Of a stretch of 64,000 bases of DNA, positions 2,068 through 64,000 are shown in pieces. A model generated the notes under the pieces. That model did not search any database. It was not told where the DNA came from and worked only from the letters and a program-made list of their open reading frames with translations. The DNA lies in contig MWBO01000008.1 of NCBI GenBank assembly GCA_002071685.1, positions 333 to 64,332 on the forward strand, given 5' to 3'. Made by a program: the position numbers and the translations under genes. Position 1 is the stretch's first letter, and each line of letters opens with the position of its first letter. This stretch comes from a candidate division WS2 bacterium ADurb.Bin280 (GTDB lineage: Bacteria; Patescibacteriota; UBA1384; DTJR01).

Positions 2068-3381
2068 ATGGAATACGTTCAAGAAAAAAAGATGGGGGCT
2101 CTTTCGGTTGGTGCTGTAGTAACAGCGATTGTTTTGGGTGTTTTGGCAAACCTTGGAGTGGGTGCAATACTAGTAACAAAAAACAAACTGGAATTTGCCA
2201 AAGCGGAAAATCAAGCGGAAAAAATTTCACAAGAATCTGAAACGATAGAAGAGCTGATGCCATCGTTAAACTTTCTGAAAACGGGAGAATCTGGAAAAAA
2301 CGGAGCAAACGGATTTGACGGAAAAAATGGAACAAACGGAACAAATGGAATAAATGGAGAGAACGGTCAAAATGGAGTGAATGGCTCAAATGGCCAAAAT
2401 GGGGAAAACGGTCTTGATGGCGAGACGGGAAATCAAGGCGCAAAAGGTGTTGCCGGTGACACAGGAACGAAGGGATTGACCACCGGATTTATCACAAGTC
2501 TCGAAAGAACAACTCAAGAGCGAATTTATTATGTAAACTCGTCTTCAGGAAGCGACATAACAGGAGTCGGCAGTCTTGACAGTCCATACGCTACTGTACA
2601 AAAAGCGATTAATTCCGTTCCCGAAAAAATCTCTCACAACACGACAATTCAAGTGGCTGCAGGAACGTATCGCGAAGGACTGGATTTTAAAAAAATAATA
2701 GATAGCGGAAAACTTTTCACAATCAAGGGTGACGCTTCCGACCCCAACTCTTATCGCATCACCGGCGCAGACGCTGGTGCTGAAACAACAGCAGTTCGAA
2801 GCTACGGTTTGGTAAACAGAAGCAACGGCAAGACCGGCGGAGGCGTGAAAGTTGAAGGGCTTCGATTTGATTACTTCAAAAATGCCGGTTTTTATTCCTA
2901 CTTTAATGCAAATACTCAATTAAAAGACATTGTCTTTCATCGATGCGCAAACTCAACCACTAGTGTAATTTATATGGTATCGTTTTCAAGGATAGATATT
3001 TACGGATCGTTAAGTATCACAGGTGATGGCAACGATTCCGGCTTTTATGCTTATGCAGCAACCAATACGATTAATGTTTTTGATGGTGCAACAATAAATA
3101 TTTACAATGTAGCATTTGGAATCGACAGTTTTTCGGGACTCATTGTGAACTCAAGCTCAGGTGCTACATGGAATATCGACAATAGCCAAATTGCAAAAAC
3201 CGGAGTCGGGATACAAGCGTGGCACGGGGAAAGAATCAAAGGGATTAAGGGAACGATGAAAAATCTTAATTATGGTGTCTGGGCAGCAAACTTGGCGCTT
3301 ATAAGTATTGGAACAATCGAAATGACAAATGTAACCACAGCAATTAACGAAACGCTCGGCGGAGTGGTAGTCGAAAACTAA
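2068..3381 (+). CDS. membrane-anchored collagen-like repeat protein with a C-terminal right-handed beta-helix (pectate-lyase-like) domain
   Basis: N-terminal TM segment, then ~22 consecutive G-X-Y triplets (GKNGANGFDGKNGTNGTNGINGENGQNG...). These are followed by YYVNSSSGSD...PYATVQKAINSV...AAGTYRE, the typical cap motif of parallel beta-helix proteins. Confidence 0.7.
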   Translation: MEYVQEKKMGALSVGAVVTAIVLGVLANLGVGAILVTKNKLEFAKAENQAEKISQESETIEELMPSLNFLKTGESGKNGANGFDGKNGTNGTNGINGENGQNGVNGSNGQNGENGLDGETGNQGAKGVAGDTGTKGLTTGFITSLERTTQERIYYVNSSSGSDITGVGSLDSPYATVQKAINSVPEKISHNTTIQVAAGTYREGLDFKKIIDSGKLFTIKGDASDPNSYRITGADAGAETTAVRSYGLVNRSNGKTGGGVKVEGLRFDYFKNAGFYSYFNANTQLKDIVFHRCANSTTSVIYMVSFSRIDIYGSLSITGDGNDSGFYAYAATNTINVFDGATINIYNVAFGIDSFSGLIVNSSSGATWNIDNSQIAKTGVGIQAWHGERIKGIKGTMKNLNYGVWAANLALISIGTIEMTNVTTAINETLGGVVVEN

Positions 3382-7054: not shown

Positions 7055-7105
7055 ATCAGGGCGCCCGATACCTTGGTGTGGTACCGGACGCCCCGAGAGA
7101 ACCAC

Positions 7106-7423
7106 TCAGGGAGTGGGCTGGGGCACGACCTGCTTGCCGATCTTCAGGTTGAACTGTGCCACAGGACCGATCTCGGCAAGCACAGCACTCGCCTGGAACT
7201 TTTGGCGCATTCCCGGATTGCCCTCCACCTCGCAGGCGTAAACTATGCCCGCTTCCATGTCTCGGGCGAAGCGCGAGGGTATGAACACCTCGGGGAGAGT
7301 GCCGGGAAGGGGGTTACAGACCTTTCCCCCCGTGGTTATGTACGCAACCACCACTCCGAACGCCACCCCCTGACTCGTCGAGCCACGAACCCAAACGCAA
7401 GCATTGACCGGCATTCCAATCAC
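7106..7423 (-). CDS. hypothetical small protein (105 aa) encoded in a high-GC island
   Basis: SD AGGGAG lies 9 nt upstream of the ATG. The opposite-strand ORF 7073..7465 reads as low-complexity R/H-rich and is taken as a shadow. Confidence 0.35.
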   Translation of the reverse strand: MIGMPVNACVWVRGSTSQGVAFGVVVAYITTGGKVCNPLPGTLPEVFIPSRFARDMEAGIVYACEVEGNPGMRQKFQASAVLAEIGPVAQFNLKIGKQVVPQPTP

Positions 7424-9298: not shown

Positions 9299-11683
9299 AT
9301 GAAATATTTTCCCAAATCATCACTAACCGCGCTCTCATTAATAATTTTGAGCGTGGCGATCTCCGGATGCAACGGCCTGAATTCTGAAGAAAATACAAAG
9401 ACAAATACAACAAAAATCAATAATCAATTTTATTACGGTGAGCAAACAAACGGATTGATGCAAATTAAATCCGCGCCCTTGGCATCTACTAATAAAATTT
9501 CAAAGTTGCTGAAAAATCTTTATGTCGATGCTTCAAAAGTTGAATCCGGCGAGACGGTTATGCAAATTGATAGTACCGGTAAAGCGATCAAAGTCTTGCC
9601 CGATGGAAGCCTTATTGTTGCCACAAACTTGAATGAGCACAAAAGTGCTGAGTCTATATCCATTTTTAATACAAAAAATAGCAAACTCGAAAATATCTAC
9701 AAACCCAAAGACAATTTTTTGATTGATGATTTTATCATAAATCCTTCGGGTAATTTAATAGCAACCTGGGAAGTTAAAAAATCACCCAAGGGCAAATTAC
9801 TAGGAGGCGAATCGAGGGTGATGGAAATAGATTTAAAGACCAATGAAATAGAAGAGATCATTCCCATCCAAAGGCTCGAAGGTGACATGAACCAAGACGA
9901 CACCAGCCTGGCACAGTATTTTGTAAGTTCGCAAGTTTGCCTTCAGCACCCAATTTTCTACGATAATAGCGACAGCATCTATCTCGACACCTTTTGTCCC
10001 AACACAATCGAAGGAACTGGATGGGGGGCGGGAATTCATGTAATAAAACATAAGAGTAAAAACGCTCAGAAATCACAAATGTTTGAAATAGGCAATTATT
10101 CATACAGACCGAGTATTTCATCCGATGGAAAAAAGATTGCTGTTGTACGGCCTAAAAACAGAAAATTTTCAACCCTAGAGGCATCGTGGGAGGCCCAGCA
10201 AAACCCAGACAGTCTTTATGTGGTTGATGTTGTTTCGGGGGAAGAAACACTCCTTTTTGAATCAGATGACACAAAAATTTCGGCCCAACCAGTAATTTCT
10301 AACGATGGTAAATACATTGGAATAACCACATTTGGAACAAATTCCGGAGAAGAAAAGGCCATCGCCCTTAACACACAGACTAAGAAAAGGATAAATATCA
10401 ATGTGTCAGCAGAAATGAAGCCGTGTTGTTTTGACGATGACAATTATCTCGTCTTTGCCCATTACGATTCAACTAATGCCGCGGGCATTTCTTATATGGG
10501 AGATGCGCCAAATTCATTTTTGGCCAGTACAATTAATTACGTCAACCCCAAAACTGGCAAGATTGAAAAGGAAGCGGACTTTCCAGACAACGATCCACCA
10601 AATGGCGAGATTATCCCAACATTAAATAAAAACTCGGAAAAAATTGAAGGATCATTAAATGCTCCGGCGGAAGGCGCTTCGAAAAAGAGTAGCTCAAATC
10701 AACAACAAATCATCGCATGGATGCCTGATGAGTCGCAAATAGCTTCTGAGAAAAAAGCCCAAATTTTTCATGAAAGTTTTACCAATAATGACTGCACAGA
10801 CAATTGTAAAAAAACGGTCGATCCTAACTCGCTAGATCCGGACTCATGCCCTCAAGACGTCAGAAATCCCGAAGCATGCGAAGTAGTAGAACTCCCTGAC
10901 GGAAGAATAGTTAAACTAAGTACATATTCGAAGCCTACGGGAGAGATCGATCCAGTTACCGGATTTGAGATAGCTACGCCATCAGAGTTGATGAAGTGGA
11001 AGTGGGAGCACTCCAAAGAAATGACCCTGGACCAGTGCAACAGGTGGATCAAATCGATCGGAGGAGTTAACACTTTTGAGAAAAGCAAAAAAAATCCCGA
11101 GATCTGGAAATTGACTTATGAAAATGCCCAGTATTTCAATTGCTTTGACTCTCCGCTTTATTTGTACCCGAAAGAAAAAAAGACTGTAAAAATTGAATCT
11201 GAAAATATAATTTTCAATACCTATCCGAAAACTGAAACTAACGGCTGGACCGTTGAGGCAAAACCCGACGGAACAATTATTCACCAAAATGAAAAGTATA
11301 ATTCAATTAAGTATGACTATAAGGGGATGCACACAACTCCCCCAAAAAATGGAGTCGTGGTAAGAAAAGAACAGCTGAGTAACTCACTAAGAACTTACGC
11401 AAATAATCTGGGACTTAATAAAACTGAGAGCGACGAATTTGTAATGTTTTTTACTAAAAAGCTCTCAAACTTGGGTCCATATATTCAAATTTCTCATTAT
11501 AATATGGGCGATTCAGAAAAAATTCTTAATCTAAAAATTGAACCAAAACCAGATACATTCATACCAATCGTTATGTACTTTAGGGAAATCTCAACACCAC
11601 TGTCTCTAAAAGAACCAACTTTTGACGATATACCGGAAAGAACAGGATTCACCGTTGTTGACTGGAGTGGAAAAATTGAGTAG
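9299..11683 (+). CDS. large lipoprotein with TolB-like beta-propeller repeats and a Cys-rich module
   Basis: Lipobox AISGC. Repeated S(S/N)DGKKIA / SNDGKYIGI blades. A C-x-C-rich segment NNDCTDNCKK...DSCPQDVRNPEACE. Confidence 0.6.
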   Translation: MKYFPKSSLTALSLIILSVAISGCNGLNSEENTKTNTTKINNQFYYGEQTNGLMQIKSAPLASTNKISKLLKNLYVDASKVESGETVMQIDSTGKAIKVLPDGSLIVATNLNEHKSAESISIFNTKNSKLENIYKPKDNFLIDDFIINPSGNLIATWEVKKSPKGKLLGGESRVMEIDLKTNEIEEIIPIQRLEGDMNQDDTSLAQYFVSSQVCLQHPIFYDNSDSIYLDTFCPNTIEGTGWGAGIHVIKHKSKNAQKSQMFEIGNYSYRPSISSDGKKIAVVRPKNRKFSTLEASWEAQQNPDSLYVVDVVSGEETLLFESDDTKISAQPVISNDGKYIGITTFGTNSGEEKAIALNTQTKKRININVSAEMKPCCFDDDNYLVFAHYDSTNAAGISYMGDAPNSFLASTINYVNPKTGKIEKEADFPDNDPPNGEIIPTLNKNSEKIEGSLNAPAEGASKKSSSNQQQIIAWMPDESQIASEKKAQIFHESFTNNDCTDNCKKTVDPNSLDPDSCPQDVRNPEACEVVELPDGRIVKLSTYSKPTGEIDPVTGFEIATPSELMKWKWEHSKEMTLDQCNRWIKSIGGVNTFEKSKKNPEIWKLTYENAQYFNCFDSPLYLYPKEKKTVKIESENIIFNTYPKTETNGWTVEAKPDGTIIHQNEKYNSIKYDYKGMHTTPPKNGVVVRKEQLSNSLRTYANNLGLNKTESDEFVMFFTKKLSNLGPYIQISHYNMGDSEKILNLKIEPKPDTFIPIVMYFREISTPLSLKEPTFDDIPERTGFTVVDWSGKIE

Positions 11684-44329: not shown

Positions 44330-44430
44330 AAAGATGATGTGCTAAATTCAAATTCCAAATTCCTAACTAATTAAAAATAAGCAAGGGCGCCGATTCCGGT
44401 GAAGGAACCGACGCCCCTGTGTCGGCAGTG

Positions 44431-45309
44431 TTAGAAGGCGGGCCCGGACGGGGGCCTTCTGACCACCTCCTCGTGCCCATCGTCGTAGACGACGGTGAAG
44501 AGAATCGGGGAGCTCGGCTCCCCATCAACGATCCGAACGACCCGAGGGCCGTCGGACCGAATGAAGACGATGGGAAACAACTTACCGGCGACATCCCCCA
44601 TCAGGATGGCGCTGTCGCCGGAGCGCAACTCCTCGGTCGGGAGGATCTCGATGCGCCGAGCACCCTCTCCGACCGTGTTGACACGCACGCCCATGGGGAC
44701 GTCCCAGAGAACGGGGACGTCAGGTGACCCGGGCCAACCGGGGTACCCCGTAGCGCCGTGGTCGATCCACGACACGTTAAGGACCACCGGCGCCGCGCTT
44801 GACAGTCGGGTGTCGGCGTAGAAGCCGTCACCCGAGCGGGTGGCGCCTTGGACGAAGATCTCCAGCTTGTCAGGCTGGATCCTCGTCGTGATGACGTGGG
44901 CCGACCAGACCGTCTGGTCGGCAACCTCGGCATAGACGTTGCACTGCCACGAGGACAGTGCAGTCAGACGCCACCGCCCGGGCGACAAGCGCTCAAGCGA
45001 GAGCGCTTCCGCCGGAACGGCGAAGAGCGTGACCGGCCGGCTGGGAAGGTCCCCGCGGACCTCCCAGATCTGCTGGCCGATCACCTCTACATCCCCATCC
45101 GGCTGAGCCGGAATGGGGTGCGAAACGACAACGTCGTCCGGCACCGTCGCGGGGGTGAACCCTTCGCCGGAACAACCGGCGAGGATAACGACCAGCATGA
45201 CGGCCAAGGCCGCCGAAAACAACTTTTTCAATGTACTTCCTCCCTTCGAAGACGAATCTCCGAGGTTCGATTTCCGACGCGAATAGCGCCATGAGGAAAT
45301 CGTAACCAA
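44431..45309 (-). CDS. lipoprotein (292 aa) encoded by a high-GC (~65%) island
   Basis: Lipobox LAGCSG after a hydrophobic signal. The GC jump coincides exactly with the gene boundaries (44381-45310). The other long ORFs here, on both strands, are typical high-GC shadows. Confidence 0.55.
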   Translation of the reverse strand: MVTISSWRYSRRKSNLGDSSSKGGSTLKKLFSAALAVMLVVILAGCSGEGFTPATVPDDVVVSHPIPAQPDGDVEVIGQQIWEVRGDLPSRPVTLFAVPAEALSLERLSPGRWRLTALSSWQCNVYAEVADQTVWSAHVITTRIQPDKLEIFVQGATRSGDGFYADTRLSSAAPVVLNVSWIDHGATGYPGWPGSPDVPVLWDVPMGVRVNTVGEGARRIEILPTEELRSGDSAILMGDVAGKLFPIVFIRSDGPRVVRIVDGEPSSPILFTVVYDDGHEEVVRRPPSGPAF

Positions 45310-45384
45310 GTACTATAGCACAAAATTGCCAAAAAGTCAAGATCACCAGCGCTTTTAAAAAAGCGACATAAACTGCAAAAAAAA

Positions 45385-45412
45385 TAAACGGCTCAATCAA
45401 ATGAGCCGTTTA
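45385..45412. terminator. palindromic hairpin element, copy 2 (TAAACGGCTCA-ATCAAA-TGAGCCGTTTA); terminator for the minus-strand ATPase-ferredoxin operon
   Basis: On the minus strand the hairpin is followed by TTTATTTTTTTT. Copy 2 is nearly identical to copy 1 over ~38 nt. Confidence 0.65.
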
Positions 45413-45430
45413 TCTTCTGTTAAATTTAAA

Positions 45431-45610
45431 TTATTTCTCTATCTGTATCGCCTCTACCGGACAAGATTGAGCAACTTCTTCAAGGTTGCAATCGTCACAT
45501 TCTTGTTTTTTGACCTTGCTAATACCGTCAACCACCTCAAAACATTGCTCGCAAAGCGCCGCACAAGTACCGCAACCTATGCACCTCACCTCATCGACTG
45601 TAATTTTCAT
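45431..45610 (-). CDS. small 4Fe-4S ferredoxin (59 aa)
   Basis: Not in the ORF track. SD GGAGAG lies 5 nt before the ATG. Translation MKITVDEVRCIGCGTCAALCEQCFEVVDGISKVKKQECDDCNLEEVAQSCPVEAIQIEK carries CxxCxxC...CP. Confidence 0.7.
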   Translation of the reverse strand: MKITVDEVRCIGCGTCAALCEQCFEVVDGISKVKKQECDDCNLEEVAQSCPVEAIQIEK

Positions 45611-45636
45611 ATCTCTCCTCTGGAATTACTATTATT

Positions 45637-47901
45637 TTAAAGAATTGGAGCGGAAAAATTTTCTTCCTTGAGCTTTTCAAGGACTTCCATTTCTTTTGAT
45701 TTTTCTTTCTTGATCTCACCCTCCGCCTGCGTCTTGGACTGACAGTAATTTTCTCTAGAGTAGGCAATGATCTGTTCCTTAAAATTGAACGTCGGCTCTG
45801 GAATCGAAATTGTTTTGCCTGAAAATGCCTCTTTTACCTCATCATCTATCGATAACTTCAAGTATATTTCCCGAACGCCAAGATTGACGATATCGTTTGC
45901 GCCAAAGCGAGGAGAAAATTCTTTTTCGAGCAAGGCGGCATCCTCCGGACCTACCCTGAAAGCGATAATTGATCCGACATTTCCAAACACAGTGTTTCGA
46001 ATGGTGTCGCTAATTTGCGAAACGTACTGGTGAGCCAAGGACAGACTCAGTTTATACTTTCTGGCCTCCGACAAAATATTGGCAAAAGTATCTGTGGCAA
46101 AGTTTTGAAACTCGTCAACGTAGAGATAAAAAGGAACACGTTGACTTTCGGGCACCTCGGAGCGCGCCAAAGCACTTTGATAAATTTTGGTAATAATCAT
46201 CGCACCCAGAAGTGACGTATTCTCTTCTCCCAGAATTCCCTTGGGTAATTTAACCAGCAGAATTTTTTTATTATCCATCACATCCTGAACAGAAAAAGTG
46301 TTCTCTTCCTGTCCGACAATATTTCTAATAATTGTATTTGATACGAACTGACCAATTTTGTTCAAAATGGGCATGATCGCTTCACTATCAAATTTCTCGC
46401 TCCATCCGGCAAATTCATTGGTCCAGAAATTTTTAACTACCTGATCTTCGATAGATTTAATCGTGTCTTGCCTATATTCACGGTCGGTCAAAAGAAGCAA
46501 TATCGAGAGAACCGACGCCTTGGGAGCATCAAGAAGCGCTAAAATCGTCATTCTCATAACGTGCTCCAGTCGAGGAGTCCAGTTGGCGCCAAAGGCCTTT
46601 TTGAAGGTTTCTATAAGTCCGGTAGCAACTTGCTGACGATAAATCTTTTCCACTTTTTCAATCGGGTTAAACGAGATGGGATACTCTTCGTCAATCGGAT
46701 TGAAATAAATAACGCCTTTGACCCTCGATTCCGGAATGTAGGGAATGATGTTTTCCACCAAATCGCCGTGCGGATCTATTACACAGATACCGTGGCCGTT
46801 TTCGATGTCATTTTTGATGAGTAATTCTTGAAGTTTGGACTTTCCCGAACCTGATTTACCGATAGTGTACATGTGTCTAGCTCTGTCTCTCCTTTTTATT
46901 CCAAATACTTCTCTGATATTGCGATAGTTGGTGGTGGCAAAGGGACAAAGCTCTTCAGGCGAAGTATTGTCAACCGTTGGTAAGCCCAGAGGCGGTTCAG
47001 CTTTTGGAGAGAGAACTTTGTATAGGTTGGGTACCGAATCTGTATCTGTTGGAAAATGAAAAATTGTCGAAAGCTCGTCCGAGGAGAGATACATGGCGTT
47101 TTTTGAAAAACTAAGAGCTTTGACTTTCTGCAAACTCTCTTCGGTCAATTCGCTTACCGGATACTTGAATTCGTTATATTCGCTTTCCAGTTTATTGAAA
47201 ACTTGCGCTATCGGAGCAAGCTTTGCCTGCGCCGAAACATGACTGTCGCTATAGAGGATCATGTCAAGCTCGACTTGGTAGAGAAATTGTTTGTTTTTTT
47301 CGACAGCAGCGCCGACCGCTCTCGACCTCGTCTCTCCGGAAAGTTTTTTGTTAAAGATGTTTTCGACGACATTTAATCTCTGGCTTAAATTTTTATAGGC
47401 CAGATTGACCGATCTTTTTACCGAAAAAATTGCCTGATTGAAGTCAACAGGGGACACTTTTACTTGCAATACAAAACTGTCATAAGCCGTCAATCTATTG
47501 AGCTGATTATAAATATCCGCCAAGAAAGATCCTTCCATCTGATGAAAGACCAAGAAGGGGAATTGATCGCCATACTTGAGCTTGAGATTTGTATGGGCGG
47601 CATTTTCCACTTTGCCGAAGCTTATCTCCTTGGAAACCGTCTCTATTTCTATCTTGGGAAAAAGAGAATATAGCTGGTTTTCAAAGATACTGGCATAGCC
47701 CTCGCCGATCCTCGCTCCATAAAAAATCCTTTTTCCAATAACGTTAAGAGTAAAACAGAAGGGAACATTGGTCAGAATCTTATTGGAAGTTTTGATAAAT
47801 TCATAAAAGGTACCAATGTCAAACTTGGTATTCTGAGGAAGTTTGATGATGTATTCTCTGCTTTCGAAAAAGTCGTCCATAAATCCTTTATAATTTATCA
47901 T
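45637..47901 (-). CDS. P-loop ATPase of the HerA/FtsK/VirB4/TrwB superfamily with a ~330-aa N-terminal domain of unknown function
   Basis: Walker A GKSGSGKS, then VIDPHGDL, Walker B YLYVDEFQNF, and an AHQY/arginine-finger region. It is a paralog of 61826..>64000. Confidence 0.8.
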   Translation of the reverse strand: MINYKGFMDDFFESREYIIKLPQNTKFDIGTFYEFIKTSNKILTNVPFCFTLNVIGKRIFYGARIGEGYASIFENQLYSLFPKIEIETVSKEISFGKVENAAHTNLKLKYGDQFPFLVFHQMEGSFLADIYNQLNRLTAYDSFVLQVKVSPVDFNQAIFSVKRSVNLAYKNLSQRLNVVENIFNKKLSGETRSRAVGAAVEKNKQFLYQVELDMILYSDSHVSAQAKLAPIAQVFNKLESEYNEFKYPVSELTEESLQKVKALSFSKNAMYLSSDELSTIFHFPTDTDSVPNLYKVLSPKAEPPLGLPTVDNTSPEELCPFATTNYRNIREVFGIKRRDRARHMYTIGKSGSGKSKLQELLIKNDIENGHGICVIDPHGDLVENIIPYIPESRVKGVIYFNPIDEEYPISFNPIEKVEKIYRQQVATGLIETFKKAFGANWTPRLEHVMRMTILALLDAPKASVLSILLLLTDREYRQDTIKSIEDQVVKNFWTNEFAGWSEKFDSEAIMPILNKIGQFVSNTIIRNIVGQEENTFSVQDVMDNKKILLVKLPKGILGEENTSLLGAMIITKIYQSALARSEVPESQRVPFYLYVDEFQNFATDTFANILSEARKYKLSLSLAHQYVSQISDTIRNTVFGNVGSIIAFRVGPEDAALLEKEFSPRFGANDIVNLGVREIYLKLSIDDEVKEAFSGKTISIPEPTFNFKEQIIAYSRENYCQSKTQAEGEIKKEKSKEMEVLEKLKEENFSAPIL

Positions 47902-47971: not shown

Positions 47972-48082
47972 ATGGCAAGCGAAATAAAAAACACCGGATT
48001 GCTATCGGCAATAGTTTTTGCCATTATAGTGATCATTTTGCTCATAATAGGACTTTTCACCCCATGGTTTCCGCAAATATAA
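47972..48082 (+). CDS. small hydrophobic peptide (36 aa, single TM)
   Basis: Not in the ORF track. SD AAAGGAGGGG lies 2 nt before the ATG. Translation MASEIKNTGLLSAIVFAIIVIILLIIGLFTPWFPQI. Divergent from the ATPase operon. Confidence 0.4.
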   Translation: MASEIKNTGLLSAIVFAIIVIILLIIGLFTPWFPQI

Positions 48083-48336
48083 AGCTCAAATATCATTCTC
48101 ACCCCATCAATGAATTTACGGAGATTGACAAGTATTTGATGGTGCCCAAAAAACTGCACGAGGATTTTCCCGAAGGCGAGATAGAAATCAGATTGCAAAA
48201 CAAGAAGTTTTCTACAAGAGTTTATGATATTTATTGTGAATGCACCGGTAGCAAACACATTCACAAGGTCATCGACTTAAGAAAATTTGAAGGAACAAAC
48301 GACTTTTCAGAGGGCGAGGAAATAGAGATCTCATGA
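48064..48336 (+). CDS. hypothetical protein (90 aa)
   Basis: Its stop overlaps the next start (ATGA). An alternative start is at M26. No motif recognised. Confidence 0.35.
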   Translation: MVSANIKLKYHSHPINEFTEIDKYLMVPKKLHEDFPEGEIEIRLQNKKFSTRVYDIYCECTGSKHIHKVIDLRKFEGTNDFSEGEEIEIS

Positions 48337-49346
48337 AACAAAAAATTTTGCTTATTCCATATGTAAAAAATGGGGAAGAAATTGTTTATTTTGTCGGAAA
48401 GAGAAAATTGAGTTTTGAGAAAGATGCTTCAAAGGAGATTTGGCAACTTCCAACAGGCAAAGTAGGCGACAACGTCGATGGCGAAAAGGTGATCGAGGCG
48501 GCGCTCCGCGAGTTTGAGGAAGAGCTCGGAGTAAAAAAATATAAAAATTTTATAAATCAAAATTATTTTTTTAATTGGAGCAAGGAGGGCGAACAAATCA
48601 GGGAATATGTTTTCGCGCTAGAGCTTGAAAATGAAAAAGTGAAAGTCTGCAAAAGGGAGTTTGAAAAATATGGCTTTTTTAATATCGATAGAGCAAAAAA
48701 AATTTTAAGTTACGACAACCATAAAAACTTTCTTGTCAGACTGGACGAAGACATCAGAACATCAAAATATCCCAAAATTTTTGTCATCTGCGGTCCCGGC
48801 GGGTGTGGGAAGGGTTCATTAATGGACCTGATCGAAGACAAAGCCAAAATCGAGCGCGCCAGAACAGCCACCACTAGAAGCAGGGGAGTCAGCGACAGCG
48901 ACAAGTGTCGGATATTTGTCAGCAAGGGTGATTTTGGGAGGATGAAAAAAAGGGGGCAATTTATCGAAACAAATTTTTTCAAGGGAAATTATTACGGATC
49001 TTTAAAAAGCGAGGTGGAGGGAAGATTTTTGGAGGGCAAAAGCGTCATGATTGAACTTGACTTAAATGGCCTTGAGCGAATAAAATCTATCTACTCAAAC
49101 GTTGTTTCAATTTTTATATACGCTGACTTAAAAACTCTTAAACAAAGAATGGAAAAAAGAGGACGAGACAGCGCAAAAGAAATCGAAAGAAGACTGAAAA
49201 TATCCCAAAGGGAACTTGAAAACTCCTCGCTTTGTGATTACATTATAAAAAATGAAGACGGCAAACTTAAAGAAGCCGCGAAAGAACTTATAAATATAAT
49301 AAACAAAAACACTGTCAAAAAGGAGAAAAATGAGTTCGCAAAATAA
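48333..49346 (+). CDS. NUDIX hydrolase fused to a guanylate-kinase-like P-loop kinase domain
   Basis: Nudix box GEKVIEAALREFEEELGV. Then GPGGCGKGS Walker A, TATTRSRG and an IFVSKGDF Gmk-like core. Confidence 0.6.
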   Translation: MKQKILLIPYVKNGEEIVYFVGKRKLSFEKDASKEIWQLPTGKVGDNVDGEKVIEAALREFEEELGVKKYKNFINQNYFFNWSKEGEQIREYVFALELENEKVKVCKREFEKYGFFNIDRAKKILSYDNHKNFLVRLDEDIRTSKYPKIFVICGPGGCGKGSLMDLIEDKAKIERARTATTRSRGVSDSDKCRIFVSKGDFGRMKKRGQFIETNFFKGNYYGSLKSEVEGRFLEGKSVMIELDLNGLERIKSIYSNVVSIFIYADLKTLKQRMEKRGRDSAKEIERRLKISQRELENSSLCDYIIKNEDGKLKEAAKELINIINKNTVKKEKNEFAK

Positions 49347-54925: not shown

Positions 54926-56644
54926 GTGGAAAATAAAACTTGTAAGCAGTGTGGGGAGGATTTTGTCGTAAGTGATGACGATTTGGCGTTTTTGGAAGAT
55001 ATAAGTCCTGAATTTGGTGGGCAAAAATATCTAATAGATAGTCCAAAACTCTGCCACAAGTGCCGACAGATAAGGAGATTAGTCTGGAGAAACGAAAGAT
55101 CACTTTATAAAAGAAAATCTGACAAAGGCGGAGAAGAGATCGTTTCTATTTATTCGCCGGACAAAACAGACTATAAAGTTTATTCAATCGATGAATATCA
55201 AAGCGATAATTGGGACGCCTTGGAATACGGATTTGAATTTGATTTTAATCTTACTTTTTTTCAGCAGTACGATAAATTGATACATCTCGTCCCTCGAAAA
55301 ACAAGCAACTCTATAAGAAATGAAAACAGCGAATTTTGTAACCAAACATGGCAAAGCAAAGATTCGTATCTTTGTTTCAACACCGGTTACGCCGAGAAAT
55401 GTATGTATTGCACCGAAGCATTCTATGTCAAGGACTGTGTGGATTGTTTTGACATAAGAAATTGCGAAGGTTGTTTTAACAGTTTCGACTGCGAAGGATG
55501 CAACAACTGCCAGTATATCGATCACTGCAAAAATTGTTCGGAGAGTTATTTCGCCTTTGACTGCATGGGCAGTCAAAATGTCTTTATGTCAACTGGACAA
55601 AGAAATAAGCAGTATGTCTTTGAAAACCAGCAACTCTCCAAAGAAGAATATGAATCTAAAATTGCACAATTCGACCTCGGTAATCGAACAGTGGTAGATG
55701 ATTTAAAAAATCGCTTCAAAGAGTTAAAAAAGAGCGCAATACATAAATTTAACCACAATATTCAAAGTGAAAATTGCACAGGTGATTACTTAAATCAGTG
55801 TCACAACTGCCATGACTGCTACAATTCATTTAAAGCTGATGGTTGCGTGCGAGTTGCCGGAATTGACGACAATTGCAAGCAATGCCGAGATATGAACATC
55901 ATAACCGAGGCAGAACTCTGCTATGAGGGCACGAGCATAACGGGATATAGAAATCTCTTTAGTGTCTTCGTCGTAAGTGGAAGCGGTAATATGTATTGTA
56001 ATTTTTGCGAGAATTGTAACGATTGTTTCGGCTGCGTTGGCTTGAACAAGAAACAGTATTGCATCCTAAACAAACAATATTCAAAAGAGGGGTATGAATC
56101 TCTGATGAGCAGAATTATTGAAAAAATGAAACAAGACGAACAATGGGGTGAATTTTTTGAACCCAGCATTTCACCATTTGGCTACAACGAAACTCTGATC
56201 AATTTATACGACAGCAAAACTAAGGACGAGGCTATCGCCATGGGAGCCAAGTGGCAAGAAAATGATTTTGCACTGAAGTTTGAGGGCGATTCATACGAAC
56301 CAGCAGAAAATATTACCCAATATGAAGATGAAGATAAGCAGAAAGAGATTGTCAATGGGATTTTGGTTTGTAAAAGCTCCGGTAAAGCTTTTAAAATAAT
56401 GCCTCAAGAGCTAGCATATTATCTTCAGCGCAGAATTCCGATACCACATAAACACTCCGAAGAGAGATTCATGGAGCTATTTCGGGAAAGAAATCCGCGA
56501 GAGCTTTTCGAACGGCAGTGTGACTGCGAAGAGGGTGATCACGATCACTCCGGCAGATGCGAGACACAATTCAAGACAACCTACGCACCAGATAGACCGG
56601 AGAAGGTTTATTGTGAAAGTTGCTACCAGAAAACTATAATGTGA
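54926..56644 (+). CDS. cysteine-rich repeat protein (572 aa, ~50 Cys in CxxC knuckles)
   Basis: GTG start. Runs such as DCVDCFDIRNCEGCFNSFDCEGCNNCQYIDHCKNC, CHNCHDC and CNFCENCNDCFGC. N- and C-terminal zinc-ribbon-like CxxC pairs. No family recognised. Confidence 0.6.
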   Translation: MENKTCKQCGEDFVVSDDDLAFLEDISPEFGGQKYLIDSPKLCHKCRQIRRLVWRNERSLYKRKSDKGGEEIVSIYSPDKTDYKVYSIDEYQSDNWDALEYGFEFDFNLTFFQQYDKLIHLVPRKTSNSIRNENSEFCNQTWQSKDSYLCFNTGYAEKCMYCTEAFYVKDCVDCFDIRNCEGCFNSFDCEGCNNCQYIDHCKNCSESYFAFDCMGSQNVFMSTGQRNKQYVFENQQLSKEEYESKIAQFDLGNRTVVDDLKNRFKELKKSAIHKFNHNIQSENCTGDYLNQCHNCHDCYNSFKADGCVRVAGIDDNCKQCRDMNIITEAELCYEGTSITGYRNLFSVFVVSGSGNMYCNFCENCNDCFGCVGLNKKQYCILNKQYSKEGYESLMSRIIEKMKQDEQWGEFFEPSISPFGYNETLINLYDSKTKDEAIAMGAKWQENDFALKFEGDSYEPAENITQYEDEDKQKEIVNGILVCKSSGKAFKIMPQELAYYLQRRIPIPHKHSEERFMELFRERNPRELFERQCDCEEGDHDHSGRCETQFKTTYAPDRPEKVYCESCYQKTIM

Positions 56645-58952: not shown

Positions 58953-60206
58953 GTGATGAAAAATAACTTTTTGACTATTTTATTTTTGCTGGTAGTCGCT
59001 ATATATGCGGTATTGATAGCAATTCCCAAGACCCCGTCTTTCCTAGGAGATCGGAAGATGAATCTCGGACTTGATCTGCAGGGCGGAGTTCAGTTAATTT
59101 ATCAGATTGAAACTGAAAAACTCAAAGACAAAGACGAGAGTGAAGCGCAACAAGAGGCGATTGACCTAATTAGAAGACGGCTTGACAACGAATCTGTGTT
59201 TGGGGGAACGGGAGAGCAAAATATTCAAATGACAAGAATAGGGGACAAGCCCGGAATTATTGTTGAGCTTCCCGGTGTTCATGATATAGACAATGCCAAG
59301 GGAATTATTGGAAAAACTGCACAACTAAAATTTTACGAGCTTGACGAATCCGGAAATGAGAAGGAGACTGATCTGACCGGAGCAGATATCAAGAGGGCCG
59401 CATTCAACATCGACCAGACATCCAGTATCAGTGCATCTCCAATTATCGATCTGGAATTCACTCCAGAAGGAGCAAAAAAATTTAAAGAAATAACAAAAAG
59501 AAATATTGGCAAGGCCCTCGTAACGAAATTGGATGACGAAGTGATAAATACCGCCACTGTTCAGACAGAAATAGACGGCGGAAAAGCTGTCATCACGGGA
59601 CTAGAAAGCAAGCAAGAGGCAAAAGACACAGCCAGACTGATCAACGAAGGAGCGCTTCCTGCGCCCATCAAATTGGTGCAAGAAGGGCACGTGGGAGCAT
59701 CACTAGGACGTGACTCCATCGAAAAAAGTTTAATAGCGGGAATTTTCGGTATATTGCTTGTTGCAATTTTCATGGTGGTTTACTACAAAGGACTTGGATT
59801 AGTCGCCACGATTGCCTTAACACTTTACACCATAATTGTCGTAGCCATCTTCAAAATTCTCAATATTACAATGACAATTTCGGGCATAGCCGGCTTTATC
59901 TTCTCGATAGGAATTGCGGTCGATGCAAACATCCTGATCTTCGAAAGATTTAAAGAGGAGTTGAAGAAAAATCTTCCGCGAAAACAAGCACTTGAAAATT
60001 CCTTTAGCCGATCTTGGCCCAGCATCAGAGATTCAAATGCGGCCTCAATCATCACTGGGCTAGTTTTGTACTATCTGGCAGCGGGAACAGTAAAGGGATT
60101 TGCAGTAACATTGATTATTGGAATTTTGGCTTCACTTTTTACTTCCATAACTGTCACACGAAACATACTACGGTTTTTTGTAAAGGAGAGACATGCAAAT
60201 AATTAA
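58953..60206 (+). CDS. secD: protein translocase subunit SecD
   Basis: N-terminal TM, a periplasmic domain, and a C-terminal 5-TM SecD/F core (GIAVDANILIFERF). Confidence 0.85.
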   Translation: MMKNNFLTILFLLVVAIYAVLIAIPKTPSFLGDRKMNLGLDLQGGVQLIYQIETEKLKDKDESEAQQEAIDLIRRRLDNESVFGGTGEQNIQMTRIGDKPGIIVELPGVHDIDNAKGIIGKTAQLKFYELDESGNEKETDLTGADIKRAAFNIDQTSSISASPIIDLEFTPEGAKKFKEITKRNIGKALVTKLDDEVINTATVQTEIDGGKAVITGLESKQEAKDTARLINEGALPAPIKLVQEGHVGASLGRDSIEKSLIAGIFGILLVAIFMVVYYKGLGLVATIALTLYTIIVVAIFKILNITMTISGIAGFIFSIGIAVDANILIFERFKEELKKNLPRKQALENSFSRSWPSIRDSNAASIITGLVLYYLAAGTVKGFAVTLIIGILASLFTSITVTRNILRFFVKERHANN

Positions 60207-61825: not shown

Positions 61826-64000
61826 CTATTTCTCCTGCTTGGCTGTCGCCTTAGAATCTTTTTCTTTCGGCTCCTCTTTTTCCTCTTTTTTTGAGCCTTT
61901 TTCTGCCACTCCCCCGGCTTCCTCCTCCGGAGAAGATTTACCCGAGAGAGTTCTGAAATTTGTTCTGTTTATGAAATACCATTTATTTATGTCATAGTCT
62001 TCAGCGCTCTTATAACCCTGTAATTCTTTTGGTAATTCCTCCCCCTCCCCCGAATCTTGCGCTACTCCCCCGTCCGAATTGATTTGTTGATCAATTATTT
62101 CGTCTTTTTCTGCCACTCCCCCACCTTGCGCCTGATCCTTTTGTTTGTCATCGCTTTTTTTCTCTTTGTCCGATGCGGACTCCCCCTCTGCATTAGTACT
62201 TAATGACTGAGTGGCGGATGAACCAAGTGTTTTATTTGTTATCTGAACCTCCACCTCTTCTCTGGGCTTTGAGTATTTCTGTCTAGATGCCTCAATTATT
62301 CCTTCGACATTTTCACTCTTGGGGTAATTTGGTAAAAGTGTTTTTGATGAAAATGGCGTTGAAGTAACCCCATTGATAGCCATTTTGATATAAATATTGT
62401 AGTTATCTAAATTCGTCAGATCACCCGCTTCAAATACCGGTACGAATTCCCTCTGCAACGCCTCTGCGTCCCCCGCCCCGACTCTAAAGCAAATCAAAGT
62501 ACCCACATTGCCAAAAACAGCGTTCGCCACCGTTTCGGGCATCTGAGCGATGTACTGGTTTGTGACCATCAAGCTCAAGCCGTACTTCCTAGCTTCTGAC
62601 AAGATCACGGCAAAGGAATCAGTGGCAAAGTTTTGAAACTCGTCCACATACAGATAAAAAGGCACTCTTTGTTCTTTCGGCAAGTCAGCTCTGGTCATGG
62701 CCGCCATTTGAATCTTTGTAATCATCATCGAGCCCAAAAGAGCGCTGTTATCCTCCCCTATTTTTCCAATAGATAAATCAAGGAGTAAAATCTTGCTTGT
62801 ATCCATTATCTGCCTAATGTCTACGGTGCTCTTTTCTTGGCCGACGATATTTCTAATTACAGTTGACGAAAGAAACTGACCAACTTTATTCTGGATCGGC
62901 GCGACAGCTTCAGTTCTAAACTTCTGATCATATCTTTCAAATTCATTCAAAAAGAAATCTCTAATAATCGGATCGGATATTTTGTCTATCACGTCGCGAC
63001 GAAATTTTGTGTCTGTCAGAACCTTTAATATGCTCAAAAGTGTAGCGTCAGGATAATCAAGTAGACCCAAGACAACGTTTCTCAAAATATACTCAAGACG
63101 GGGACCCCACGACTCCCCAAAAATTTTCTTAAATACACTAACAATACCGGAGGAAACCAGATTCTTATATTCTGGATCAACACTCTCCAAAAGATTAAAC
63201 CCTATCGGGAAATTTCTATCTGCCGGCGAGAAGAAAACTACATCTTGCTCTCTCTCTTTGGGTATATAGTCGAGAACATCCCTGACAAGATCACCGTGTG
63301 GATCAACTACCGCCACTCCCCTGCCCTTATAAATATCGTCAAGTATCATTCCCGACAAAAGAGTAGATTTACCAGTACCGGTCTTCCCTATGGCATAAAC
63401 ATGAAGAGCTCTATCCTTCATTTTCAACCCGAAATTTTTCTCCGCTCCTCTGAAATTTGTTTTTCCTACGACGGTGACGTCATCATCTCCATTACCCTCT
63501 ATTACGGGTAAATTTTGTGGCGGCTCCCCTTTCTTGGCGCCCGCCCAGTCCATGGTTGGAGTGACGACGCTTTCACTGGGCAAGTGATAAATCGAAGCAA
63601 TTTCTTCAATGTTTAAAATAAATGGGTTTGTGCCCATCGCCCTTTGCTTGTATTGATTCAGTATCAAATCACCTTCGGTCGCAATCCCCTGTATCAGCCC
63701 ATTCATGTTAACCGTATTGTATTGCTTGAAGGCACCAACCACCGCATTTAATTTTCTTTTTGCTTTTGAATAATCCGAAGACGAACAGGCAATTCTGATA
63801 CTTGTCTTAAATCCAAGTTTTGTTGTCTTCTCTTCTATTCCCTTCAAGGCTAGTTGCATCGGTCCAGAAACCTCTTTTGCTTCCGGAGCAACGGGCGTTC
63901 CACTAGCTGTTGTTCGCCCCGAACTGATCACATCTCTTGCAAAAGATTTCCAAAATGACTCGCCCGGATCACGTCCGGCACGAATCGTTTTTGTGTAGTT
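61826..64000 (-). CDS. paralogous HerA/FtsK/VirB4/TrwB-superfamily ATPase with an acidic low-complexity C-terminal tail (5' end beyond window)
   Basis: Walker A GKTGTGKS, VVDPHGDL, Walker B YLYVDEFQNF and ICFRVGAGDAEAL. Alignable to 45637..47901 along its whole length. The N-terminal domain is ~155 aa shorter than in the paralog, so the gene continues past 64000. Confidence 0.75.
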   Translation of the reverse strand, partial: NYTKTIRAGRDPGESFWKSFARDVISSGRTTASGTPVAPEAKEVSGPMQLALKGIEEKTTKLGFKTSIRIACSSSDYSKAKRKLNAVVGAFKQYNTVNMNGLIQGIATEGDLILNQYKQRAMGTNPFILNIEEIASIYHLPSESVVTPTMDWAGAKKGEPPQNLPVIEGNGDDDVTVVGKTNFRGAEKNFGLKMKDRALHVYAIGKTGTGKSTLLSGMILDDIYKGRGVAVVDPHGDLVRDVLDYIPKEREQDVVFFSPADRNFPIGFNLLESVDPEYKNLVSSGIVSVFKKIFGESWGPRLEYILRNVVLGLLDYPDATLLSILKVLTDTKFRRDVIDKISDPIIRDFFLNEFERYDQKFRTEAVAPIQNKVGQFLSSTVIRNIVGQEKSTVDIRQIMDTSKILLLDLSIGKIGEDNSALLGSMMITKIQMAAMTRADLPKEQRVPFYLYVDEFQNFATDSFAVILSEARKYGLSLMVTNQYIAQMPETVANAVFGNVGTLICFRVGAGDAEALQREFVPVFEAGDLTNLDNYNIYIKMAINGVTSTPFSSKTLLPNYPKSENVEGIIEASRQKYSKPREEVEVQITNKTLGSSATQSLSTNAEGESASDKEKKSDDKQKDQAQGGGVAEKDEIIDQQINSDGGVAQDSGEGEELPKELQGYKSAEDYDINKWYFINRTNFRTLSGKSSPEEEAGGVAEKGSKKEEKEEPKEKDSKATAKQEK

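Follow-up and report, generated by a model that had tools for sequence, protein, structure and literature searches.

What does a DNA-translocase-type ATPase do in the chromosome of a candidate-phylum bacterium, and is the ferredoxin encoded directly behind it a part of the same machine? This question is raised by a two-gene unit within 64,000 nucleotides of contig MWBO01000008.1 (candidate division WS2 bacterium ADurb.Bin280, Patescibacteriota); the whole stretch analysed is called here the window. A protein encoded near the unit is 100% identical to BWY43_00144 of this bacterium. The closest labelled relatives of the source genome are Berkelbacteria, and the bin label "ADurb" marks it as a metagenome-assembled genome (MAG) from an anaerobic digester. 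The initial annotation described an ATPase of the HerA/FtsK/VirB4 superfamily with a novel N-terminal domain, and proposed that it forms with the ferredoxin an uncharacterised translocation, secretion or defence module specific to this lineage. On balance, our preferred reading is a different one: the ATPase represents one of two paralog types, type A, in a family of orphan ATPases of the VirB4/VirD4 superfamily, and is a translocase related to type IV secretion systems (T4SS). The protein combines the domain layout of VirB4, a motor that is VirD4-like by sequence, intact catalytic motifs, and the lack of a membrane anchor of its own. The features of the locus are collected in Table 1.

Table 1. 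Coordinates of the two-gene unit and of related or neighbouring features in the window.
Feature	Position	Strand	Basis
Type-A orphan ATPase, VirB4-like and like type IV coupling proteins, 747 aa	45637..47880	minus	Open reading frame; ortholog starts; Pfam; AlphaFold
N-terminal domain of the ATPase (residues 1-328 of 747), DUF8128, predicted fold like the VirB4 N-terminal domain, without transmembrane helix	46897..47880	minus	
C-terminal motor half, a RecA-like NTPase; motifs GKSGSGKS (Walker A), DPHGD and VDEFQNF (Walker B)	45637..46896	minus	
Intergenic spacer, 26 nt, with GAGGAG Shine-Dalgarno sequence ahead of the ferredoxin ATG	45611..45636	minus	Sequence read
Single-cluster [4Fe-4S] ferredoxin, 59 aa, Fer4_13, Thermotoga/Pyrococcus type	45431..45610	minus	Pfam Fer4_13; 1ROF/1VJW match; ortholog alignment
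Intrinsic-terminator-like hairpin aaacggctca-tttgat-tgagccgttt, then T8	45375..45413	minus	Sequence read and palindrome scan
Transmembrane peptide gene, 36 aa, divergent, upstream of the ATPase	47972..48082		
NUDIX-guanylate kinase fusion	48333..49346		
Cys-rich protein, ~570 aa, window copy	54926..56644	plus	Neighbour clustering
Type-B paralog, N-terminus beyond the window, long acidic low-complexity C-terminal tail	61826..64000	minus	Identity; open frame; typing

The assignment to the P-loop translocases of the HerA/FtsK/VirB4 and type IV coupling protein (T4CP) superfamily is correct. The open reading frame (ORF) as mechanically delimited (754 aa, 45637..47901, minus strand) contains the reported GKSGSGKS, DPHGD and DEFQNF motifs, the last of them in the context YLYVDEFQNF, and none of the three (Walker A, DPHGD, Walker B) varies among 88 homologues. 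An all-helical insertion occupies approximately residues 412-536 of the motor, and the AlphaFold model of the full-length protein has a predicted local distance difference test score (pLDDT) of 89.9. Among the Pfam profiles, TrwB_AAD_bind (PF10412) reaches 37.6 bits, its gathering score being 20.5, TraG-D_C (PF12696) reaches 27.5 bits against 22, and DUF87 matches above its gathering score at the Walker A region. The top NCBIfam match is the VirD4-like CD1115 family, with 57.8 bits against a cut-off of 250, and every score for the NCBIfam equivalogs (TraD, VirD4, CD1115) lies far under the respective cut-off. A profile search of all PDB sequences recovered TrwB (E ~5e-4) and DotL alone, even at E up to 10, VirB4 giving no match within that limit; sequence profiles of the VirB4 families were not matched either, with only faint matches to TraC and to TraG-type ATPases. 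The gene has been placed at 45637..47880 because all close orthologs are 747 aa long and start at M8 of the window protein, a codon preceded at a distance of 3 nt by its own Shine-Dalgarno sequence, AAAGGA; M8 is the most likely true start. An exact-sequence look-up of the 754-aa ORF gave no match, and the annotated product probably begins at M8.

The N-terminal domain proved to be not wholly novel. Its approximately 330 residues match no Pfam or NCBIfam profile when the Pfam set is used without PF26449; the homologues carry a precomputed match to this very entry, DUF8128, and the assignment of the window protein rests on them. The name DUF8128 is not mentioned in the literature searched. The AlphaFold model of the domain, with 88 homologues, has a pLDDT of 90.9 and a predicted template-modelling score (pTM) of 0.85, and in a Foldseek search with this model eight TrwK/VirB4 chains ranked first (E 3e-6, probability 1.0). 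The match must be to the N-terminal domain of VirB4, because the query has no P-loop domain and 4ag5, a structure of the C-terminal domain only, is not among the Foldseek matches. Judged from the model, the fold matches this VirB4 domain and looks like the membrane-docking domain of VirB4. The reported lack of a HAS-barrel is borne out, since the fold search returns VirB4 and not HerA. In VirB4 proteins, this domain links the protomers to one another, is embedded in the membrane, and makes contacts with VirB3 and VirB8 (PMC12857230). No hydrophobic or transmembrane segment is found in residues 1-335 of the window protein, and the sole hydrophobic peak of the whole protein (KD19 2.02) is a conserved helix in the ATPase half that contains charged residues. 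A phmmer search with the N-domain alone against 1.84 billion representatives produced 113 matches, all of them N-termini or fragments of the same family, and no new architecture.

Contrary to what had been supposed, the ATPase is not specific to one lineage. A pattern scan with one genome per species found relatives encoded in at least 598 species genomes, among others of Saccharibacteria, Peregrinibacteria/Peribacteria, Abawacabacteria, Daviesbacteria, Nomurabacteria, Paceibacteria, Moranbacteria, Kerfeldbacteria and Absconditabacteria. The family is, moreover, already on record under the name of orphan T4CP homologues. With CONJscan-type profiles, Quinonero-Coronel et al. (2025; PMC12102498) detected 5,713 VirD4-type T4CPs in Patescibacteria; these occur in 2,918 of the 3,035 genomes examined (96%), at approximately two per genome, and only 148 of them lie near virB4. 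The family is essentially universal in the phylum, and the two paralogs of the window agree with a complement of about two copies per genome. As the initial annotation had stated, the second copy is present at the window end, with a frame open to the window edge; it is 42% identical to the first over residues 201-730. What the present analysis adds to the earlier report is the VirB4-like N-domain, the missing transmembrane anchor, and a conserved Cys-rich neighbour of type A; the first two are not discussed in the consulted portions of PMC12102498, PMC10633639 or a FEMS review.

Two locus samples were compared. The first comprises 82 loci beyond four close-relative contigs (L001, L084, L085 and L086, with ATPases 82-93% identical to the window ATPase), namely 80 species-representative genome loci and one contig present twice (L002/L003); the second comprises 80 metagenome loci, which brings the neighbourhoods inspected to about 165. 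Certain loci duplicate a single contig or are phylogenetically close to one another. The ATPases of all fetched loci (more than 160) were typed against the two window paralogs, type A being the gene at 45637..47880 and type B the copy at the window end. In several loci outside the Saccharibacteria (L016, L069, L072, L077, L081, L082 and L083), the type-B gene is divided over two neighbouring ORFs, an N-terminal part of about 430-520 aa followed by a motor of about 530-740 aa; true gene splitting, frameshifts or recoding could each account for this.

Under the preferred reading, the ATPase would most likely assemble on the cytoplasmic side of the membrane into a hexameric, ATP-driven ring acting as a translocase or substrate receptor, would dock there through its VirB4-like N-domain, and would feed a protein or DNA substrate into a channel encoded elsewhere. 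The obvious candidate for this channel would be the chromosomal T4SS of Patescibacteria. Its essential gene cluster in S. epibionticum is without a recognisable coupling protein in the account of Wang et al. (2023; PMC10633639), and the Patescibacteria cluster has its own bona fide VirB4 (PMC12102498). A precedent for anchoring by a separate protein would be TraJ of pIP501, for which anchoring to the membrane by TraI is proposed (PMC12857230). Several points weigh against this reading. The oligomeric state, the substrate and the membrane association of the ATPase are all inferred. The N-domain is only a distant match to VirB4 (7-10% identity, query-normalised TM-score of 0.41-0.46). No T4SS gene occurs among the scanned ORFs of the window, a scan that covered part of them, or in the roughly 165 neighbourhoods, where an all-against-all clustering of the neighbour ORFs contained no T4SS component; a tie to the T4SS, whether physical or genetic, is putative. 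In addition, the lone tested homologue, a type-B protein of S. epibionticum, is non-essential in transposon sequencing while the T4SS is essential (PMC12102498). On this account the family may have a role apart from the T4SS, and the authors of that study state that exaptation "cannot be ruled out."

Such independence is the core of an alternative suggested by the gene neighbourhoods. Type-A loci have one widely conserved neighbour only, a family of Cys-rich proteins of about 560-575 aa, conserved along the whole length. The window copy has 38 cysteines, 16 CxxC motifs and zinc-ribbon-like termini with invariant Cys pairs at both ends; it matches nothing in Pfam, PADLOC or the PDB and contains no signal peptide. 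The family is very large, with 5,792 or more clusters of homologues, nearly all of them devoid of a Pfam domain, and is called "hypothetical" wherever it is named. A Cys-rich gene lies within 3 kb of the ATPase in 14 of the 14 loci L002-L015, in one to seven copies that are often co-oriented with gaps of 0-75 bp; over all type-A loci the family is found in 19 of 29 (48 copies), and in the metagenome sample in 9 of 11. At type-B genes it is rare (4/67 and 2/61 loci). The same adjoining arrangement occurs on a labelled Berkelbacteria contig, and the position relative to type A varies (upstream, downstream, either strand), which indicates that the proximity has survived rearrangement. Tandem arrays of two to seven Cys-rich copies are seen in L002, L005, L006, L007, L009, L012, L076 and L177.

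From this distribution one could read the type-A ATPase and the multi-copy Cys-rich proteins, as its clients, adaptors or substrates, as a T4SS-independent, Patescibacteria-specific system whose genes have drifted 7 kb apart in the clade of the window. We consider this possible, though doubtful. Adjacency does not prove interaction, and for a multi-copy family some proximity is expected by chance; part of the loci, as said above, are duplicates or close kin. The Cys-rich proteins, conserved over the whole length and without signal peptide, are unlike diversifying effectors. Furthermore, in the clade of the window the Cys-rich gene lies about 7 kb from the ATPase with housekeeping genes in between, and the separated genes show no sign of decay. 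In this clade, the slot directly downstream of the ATPase is filled by the ferredoxin gene.

The initial proposal amounts to a redox-coupled module, in which the ferredoxin would be the dedicated partner of a translocation, secretion or defence ATPase. The elements of the unit reported earlier are all present: the 59-aa ORF, carrying CIGCGTCAALCE...CP, the Shine-Dalgarno sequence GAGGAG about 5 nt before its ATG, and the terminating palindrome, whose 10-bp stem (aaacggctca / tgagccgttt) closes the ATPase-ferredoxin unit on the 3′ side of the ferredoxin. The 26-nt spacing, the Shine-Dalgarno sequence and the shared terminator indicate that the two genes are likely co-transcribed; in the relatives the printed coordinates leave 12-43 bases between them. 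The ferredoxin scores 35.7 bits against the Pfam Fer4_13 threshold of 24.5 (E 1.4e-8), matches the Thermotoga maritima ferredoxin (1ROF/1VJW) over its full length (E 6.8e-9), and is homologous to the Pyrococcus furiosus type too. It is an ordinary, low-potential [4Fe-4S] electron carrier. Four of its cysteines fit the [4Fe-4S] motif, and the other four form a CxxC...CxxC set, which is two cysteines beyond the usual disulfide pair of the Thermotoga type; this set may be a second metal site.

The conservation of the linkage is what decides here. The ferredoxin gene stands directly 3′ of the ATPase in L001, L084, L085 and L086, and all eight cysteines are kept in the five contigs (ATPases 82-100% identical). 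Beyond these, it follows the ATPase in none of the 82 remaining loci of the first sample and in none of the 80 metagenome loci, and orthologs whose ATPases are 66-69% identical have a Cys-rich gene in its position. The gene-neighbourhood comparison that the initial annotation had called for therefore limits the linkage to one genus-level clade: the adjacency, whose restriction to this genome the initial annotation had itself named as refuting its proposal, is essentially confined to this genome and four contigs with ATPases at least 82% identical, and a conserved redox partnership is not supported. It is also relevant that the ATPase showed neither motif nor domain for the binding of Fe-S clusters or flavin, and that the ferredoxin is a generic carrier of about 60 aa. 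Given this distribution, the redox-module reading is close to refuted and we hold it to be very unlikely; the ferredoxin seems to be an incidental, clade-specific neighbour, not supported as a conserved partner or a defining part of the machine. Nonetheless, within the small clade the linkage is tight and has been kept across about 18% ATPase divergence, so that a local functional tie may exist, a point which again counts against the preferred reading.

A further set of neighbours comes from the type-B side. Type B is the type found in Saccharibacteria, and there dprA and topA precede the gene in the same orientation in 20-31 loci. T4CPs, FtsK and HerA proteins are DNA translocases. With this established knowledge, and with comEC and the t4cp homologue both being non-essential in S. 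epibionticum, one could think of a cytoplasmic motor for DNA uptake or processing, acting for example downstream of ComEC and not serving the T4SS. However, the dprA/topA synteny is restricted to loci of the Saccharibacteria type and does not apply to type A, and it was rejected as functional evidence for this reason; the DNA-uptake reading appears improbable to a high degree.

Two further roles remain to be weighed together, an ATPase of anti-phage defence that resembles HerA or MADS and a coupling protein belonging to an integrated conjugative element. Weak PADLOC matches to mad8 (E 4.7e-11) and HerA point in this direction, as does a homologous viral family, phrog_5156, a PHROG of unknown function whose 824-position profile matches residues 172-740 (E 3e-69). 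Eight viral or provirus contigs of IMG/VR (L089-L096) encode relatives with 28-48% identity. Nevertheless, these are 8 among 2.9 million viral contigs and match the motor half only, and a phage-gene reading was rejected on these grounds despite the phrog_5156 homology. No nuclease, Sir2, methylase, relaxase or integrase was found nearby, the gene has a native GC content, and on either side it is flanked by housekeeping genes in synteny with relatives. The near-universal presence in the phylum, in about two copies, is not the pattern of defence or mobile genes. With weak mad8/HerA matches and no partner gene, the defence reading was rejected, and defence ATPase or mobile-element coupling protein would be the least probable of the roles discussed here.

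With the T4SS-related translocase as the preferred reading, the practical consequences are several. A soluble protein with a VirB4-type N-domain means that VirB3- or VirB8-like membrane proteins, or VirB4-like protomers, should be sought as partners, not relaxosomes, and this domain also bears on the divergence of VirB4 and VirD4. Although the genomes of Patescibacteria, a group that accounts for a large part of bacterial diversity, are tiny, 96% keep about two ATPase copies. The recurrent pairing of type A with the Cys-rich family provides a concrete candidate partner or substrate, and the idea of a redox-coupled translocase can be set aside on comparative data. A bolder extension, which we regard as rather improbable, is that the DUF8128 ATPases, with a VirB4-like docking domain retained on a VirD4-like motor, constitute a third deep VirB4/VirD4 branch outside the T4SS, and that type A together with 38-Cys zinc-ribbon arrays is a hitherto unrecognised machine found throughout Patescibacteria. 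If this were true, the machine might load, unfold or export metal-binding clients, or partition DNA, and the ferredoxin might have been acquired in the clade of the window because the clients are metal or cluster proteins.

The surroundings of the unit are those of a bacterial chromosome. The scanned remainder of the window encodes housekeeping proteins (ClpB, class II ribonucleotide reductase, BipA, RelA/SpoT, MreB and GAPDH), as well as members of the CCA-adding-enzyme/poly(A)-polymerase and EPSP_synthase (MurA/AroA-type) families and a pyridine nucleotide-disulphide oxidoreductase. An ORF starting at 58953 resembles SecD, which we take from inspection by eye and not from a tool result. The scanned ORFs include no VirB, Tra, relaxase, NurA or Sir2 gene, in agreement with the earlier statement that no VirB/Tra, NurA or Sir2 partner is present; a canonical T4SS locus around the gene was likewise not found. 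The 36-aa transmembrane peptide gene and the NUDIX-kinase fusion described upstream are both there, the former being seen in close relatives only. Between this peptide gene and the ATPase, close relatives have a DUF8173 gene of about 378 aa (L085, 2857-3996; L086, 4756-5889); it is missing from the window, so that the upstream side of the ATPase is also a variable slot. Elsewhere, a 794-aa ORF (9299-11683, plus strand) has no match in Pfam, PADLOC or PHROGs, and a 437-aa protein (2068-3381, plus strand) contains collagen triple-helix repeats (Pfam Collagen, E 1e-9). Neither tRNA genes nor Rfam families at gathering score were detected anywhere in the 64 kb.

Directly downstream of the ferredoxin terminator lies a high-GC cassette (44382-45340). 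Its gene (44431-45231, minus strand, about 800 bp) has 65% GC and a GC content at third codon positions (GC3) of 0.82 in a genome of about 40% GC, and encodes a lipoprotein with a signal peptide and an LAGC lipobox. The cassette has its own strong promoter-like site, TTGACT-17-TATAGT with a TG ahead, and its own terminator with a 16-bp stem. High-GC lipoprotein genes occupy the same slot in L084 (58% identical) and L001 (unalignable by BLAST), while the slot is empty in L085 and L086; an assembly chimera was rejected, since three independent assemblies have such a gene at this place. Among 5.8 billion proteins only four homologues were found, one with a dockerin domain and one from a Berkelbacteria bacterium with a GC3 of 0.77. 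An actinobacterial host was considered as donor of the gene; of the four homologues, the two with a named source come from this MAG and from the Berkelbacteria bacterium. The Berkelbacteria contig with the distant lipoprotein homologue (L087, 860-2991) has more high-GC genes (56-66% GC) beside a gene for bAvd, the accessory protein of diversity-generating retroelements. The window has two more GC-rich islets (56-66% GC): one at 1-459, whose ORF (GC3 0.77) has no end before the window start, and one at 7100-7400, between the BipA gene and the next gene, for which a structured RNA was rejected (no Rfam match, folding z-score -0.48).

How, then, does the ATPase compare with the systems already known? 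With the VirD4/TrwB/TraD coupling proteins it shares the RecA-like NTPase with an all-alpha insertion in the nucleotide-binding domain, a succession of Walker A, DPxGD and Walker B that aligns directly with TrwB, and above-threshold scores for TrwB_AAD_bind and TraG-D_C. It differs from them in having no N-terminal transmembrane anchor and, in its place, a 330-aa domain predicted to be like that of VirB4, and it stays below every NCBIfam equivalog cut-off. In addition, it is chromosomal, belongs to the core of a phylum in about two copies per genome, and is not placed beside relaxase or mating-pair-formation genes in the loci and window ORFs covered. VirB4 proteins, such as TrwK of R388 and VirB4 of T. 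pseudethanolicus, have the same two-domain layout with an N-terminal VirB4-type domain, but their families are not matched by the ATPase at the level of sequence profiles, and virB3, virB6 and virB8 are not among its conserved neighbours. In contrast to HerA/DUF87 proteins, the ATPase is without a HAS-barrel, and NurA, Sir2 or another effector was not found nearby. The closest parallel for the missing anchor is TraJ of pIP501, also a T4CP without transmembrane domain, for which anchoring by the separate small transmembrane protein TraI has been proposed (PMC12857230); TraJ is, however, plasmid-borne within a conjugation operon, and the review text consulted does not mention a VirB4-like N-domain for it. 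Finally, the ferredoxin resembles those of T. maritima and P. furiosus in its length of about 60 aa, in the CxxCxxC...CP motif and in its full-length alignment, and is distinguished from them by two extra conserved cysteines.

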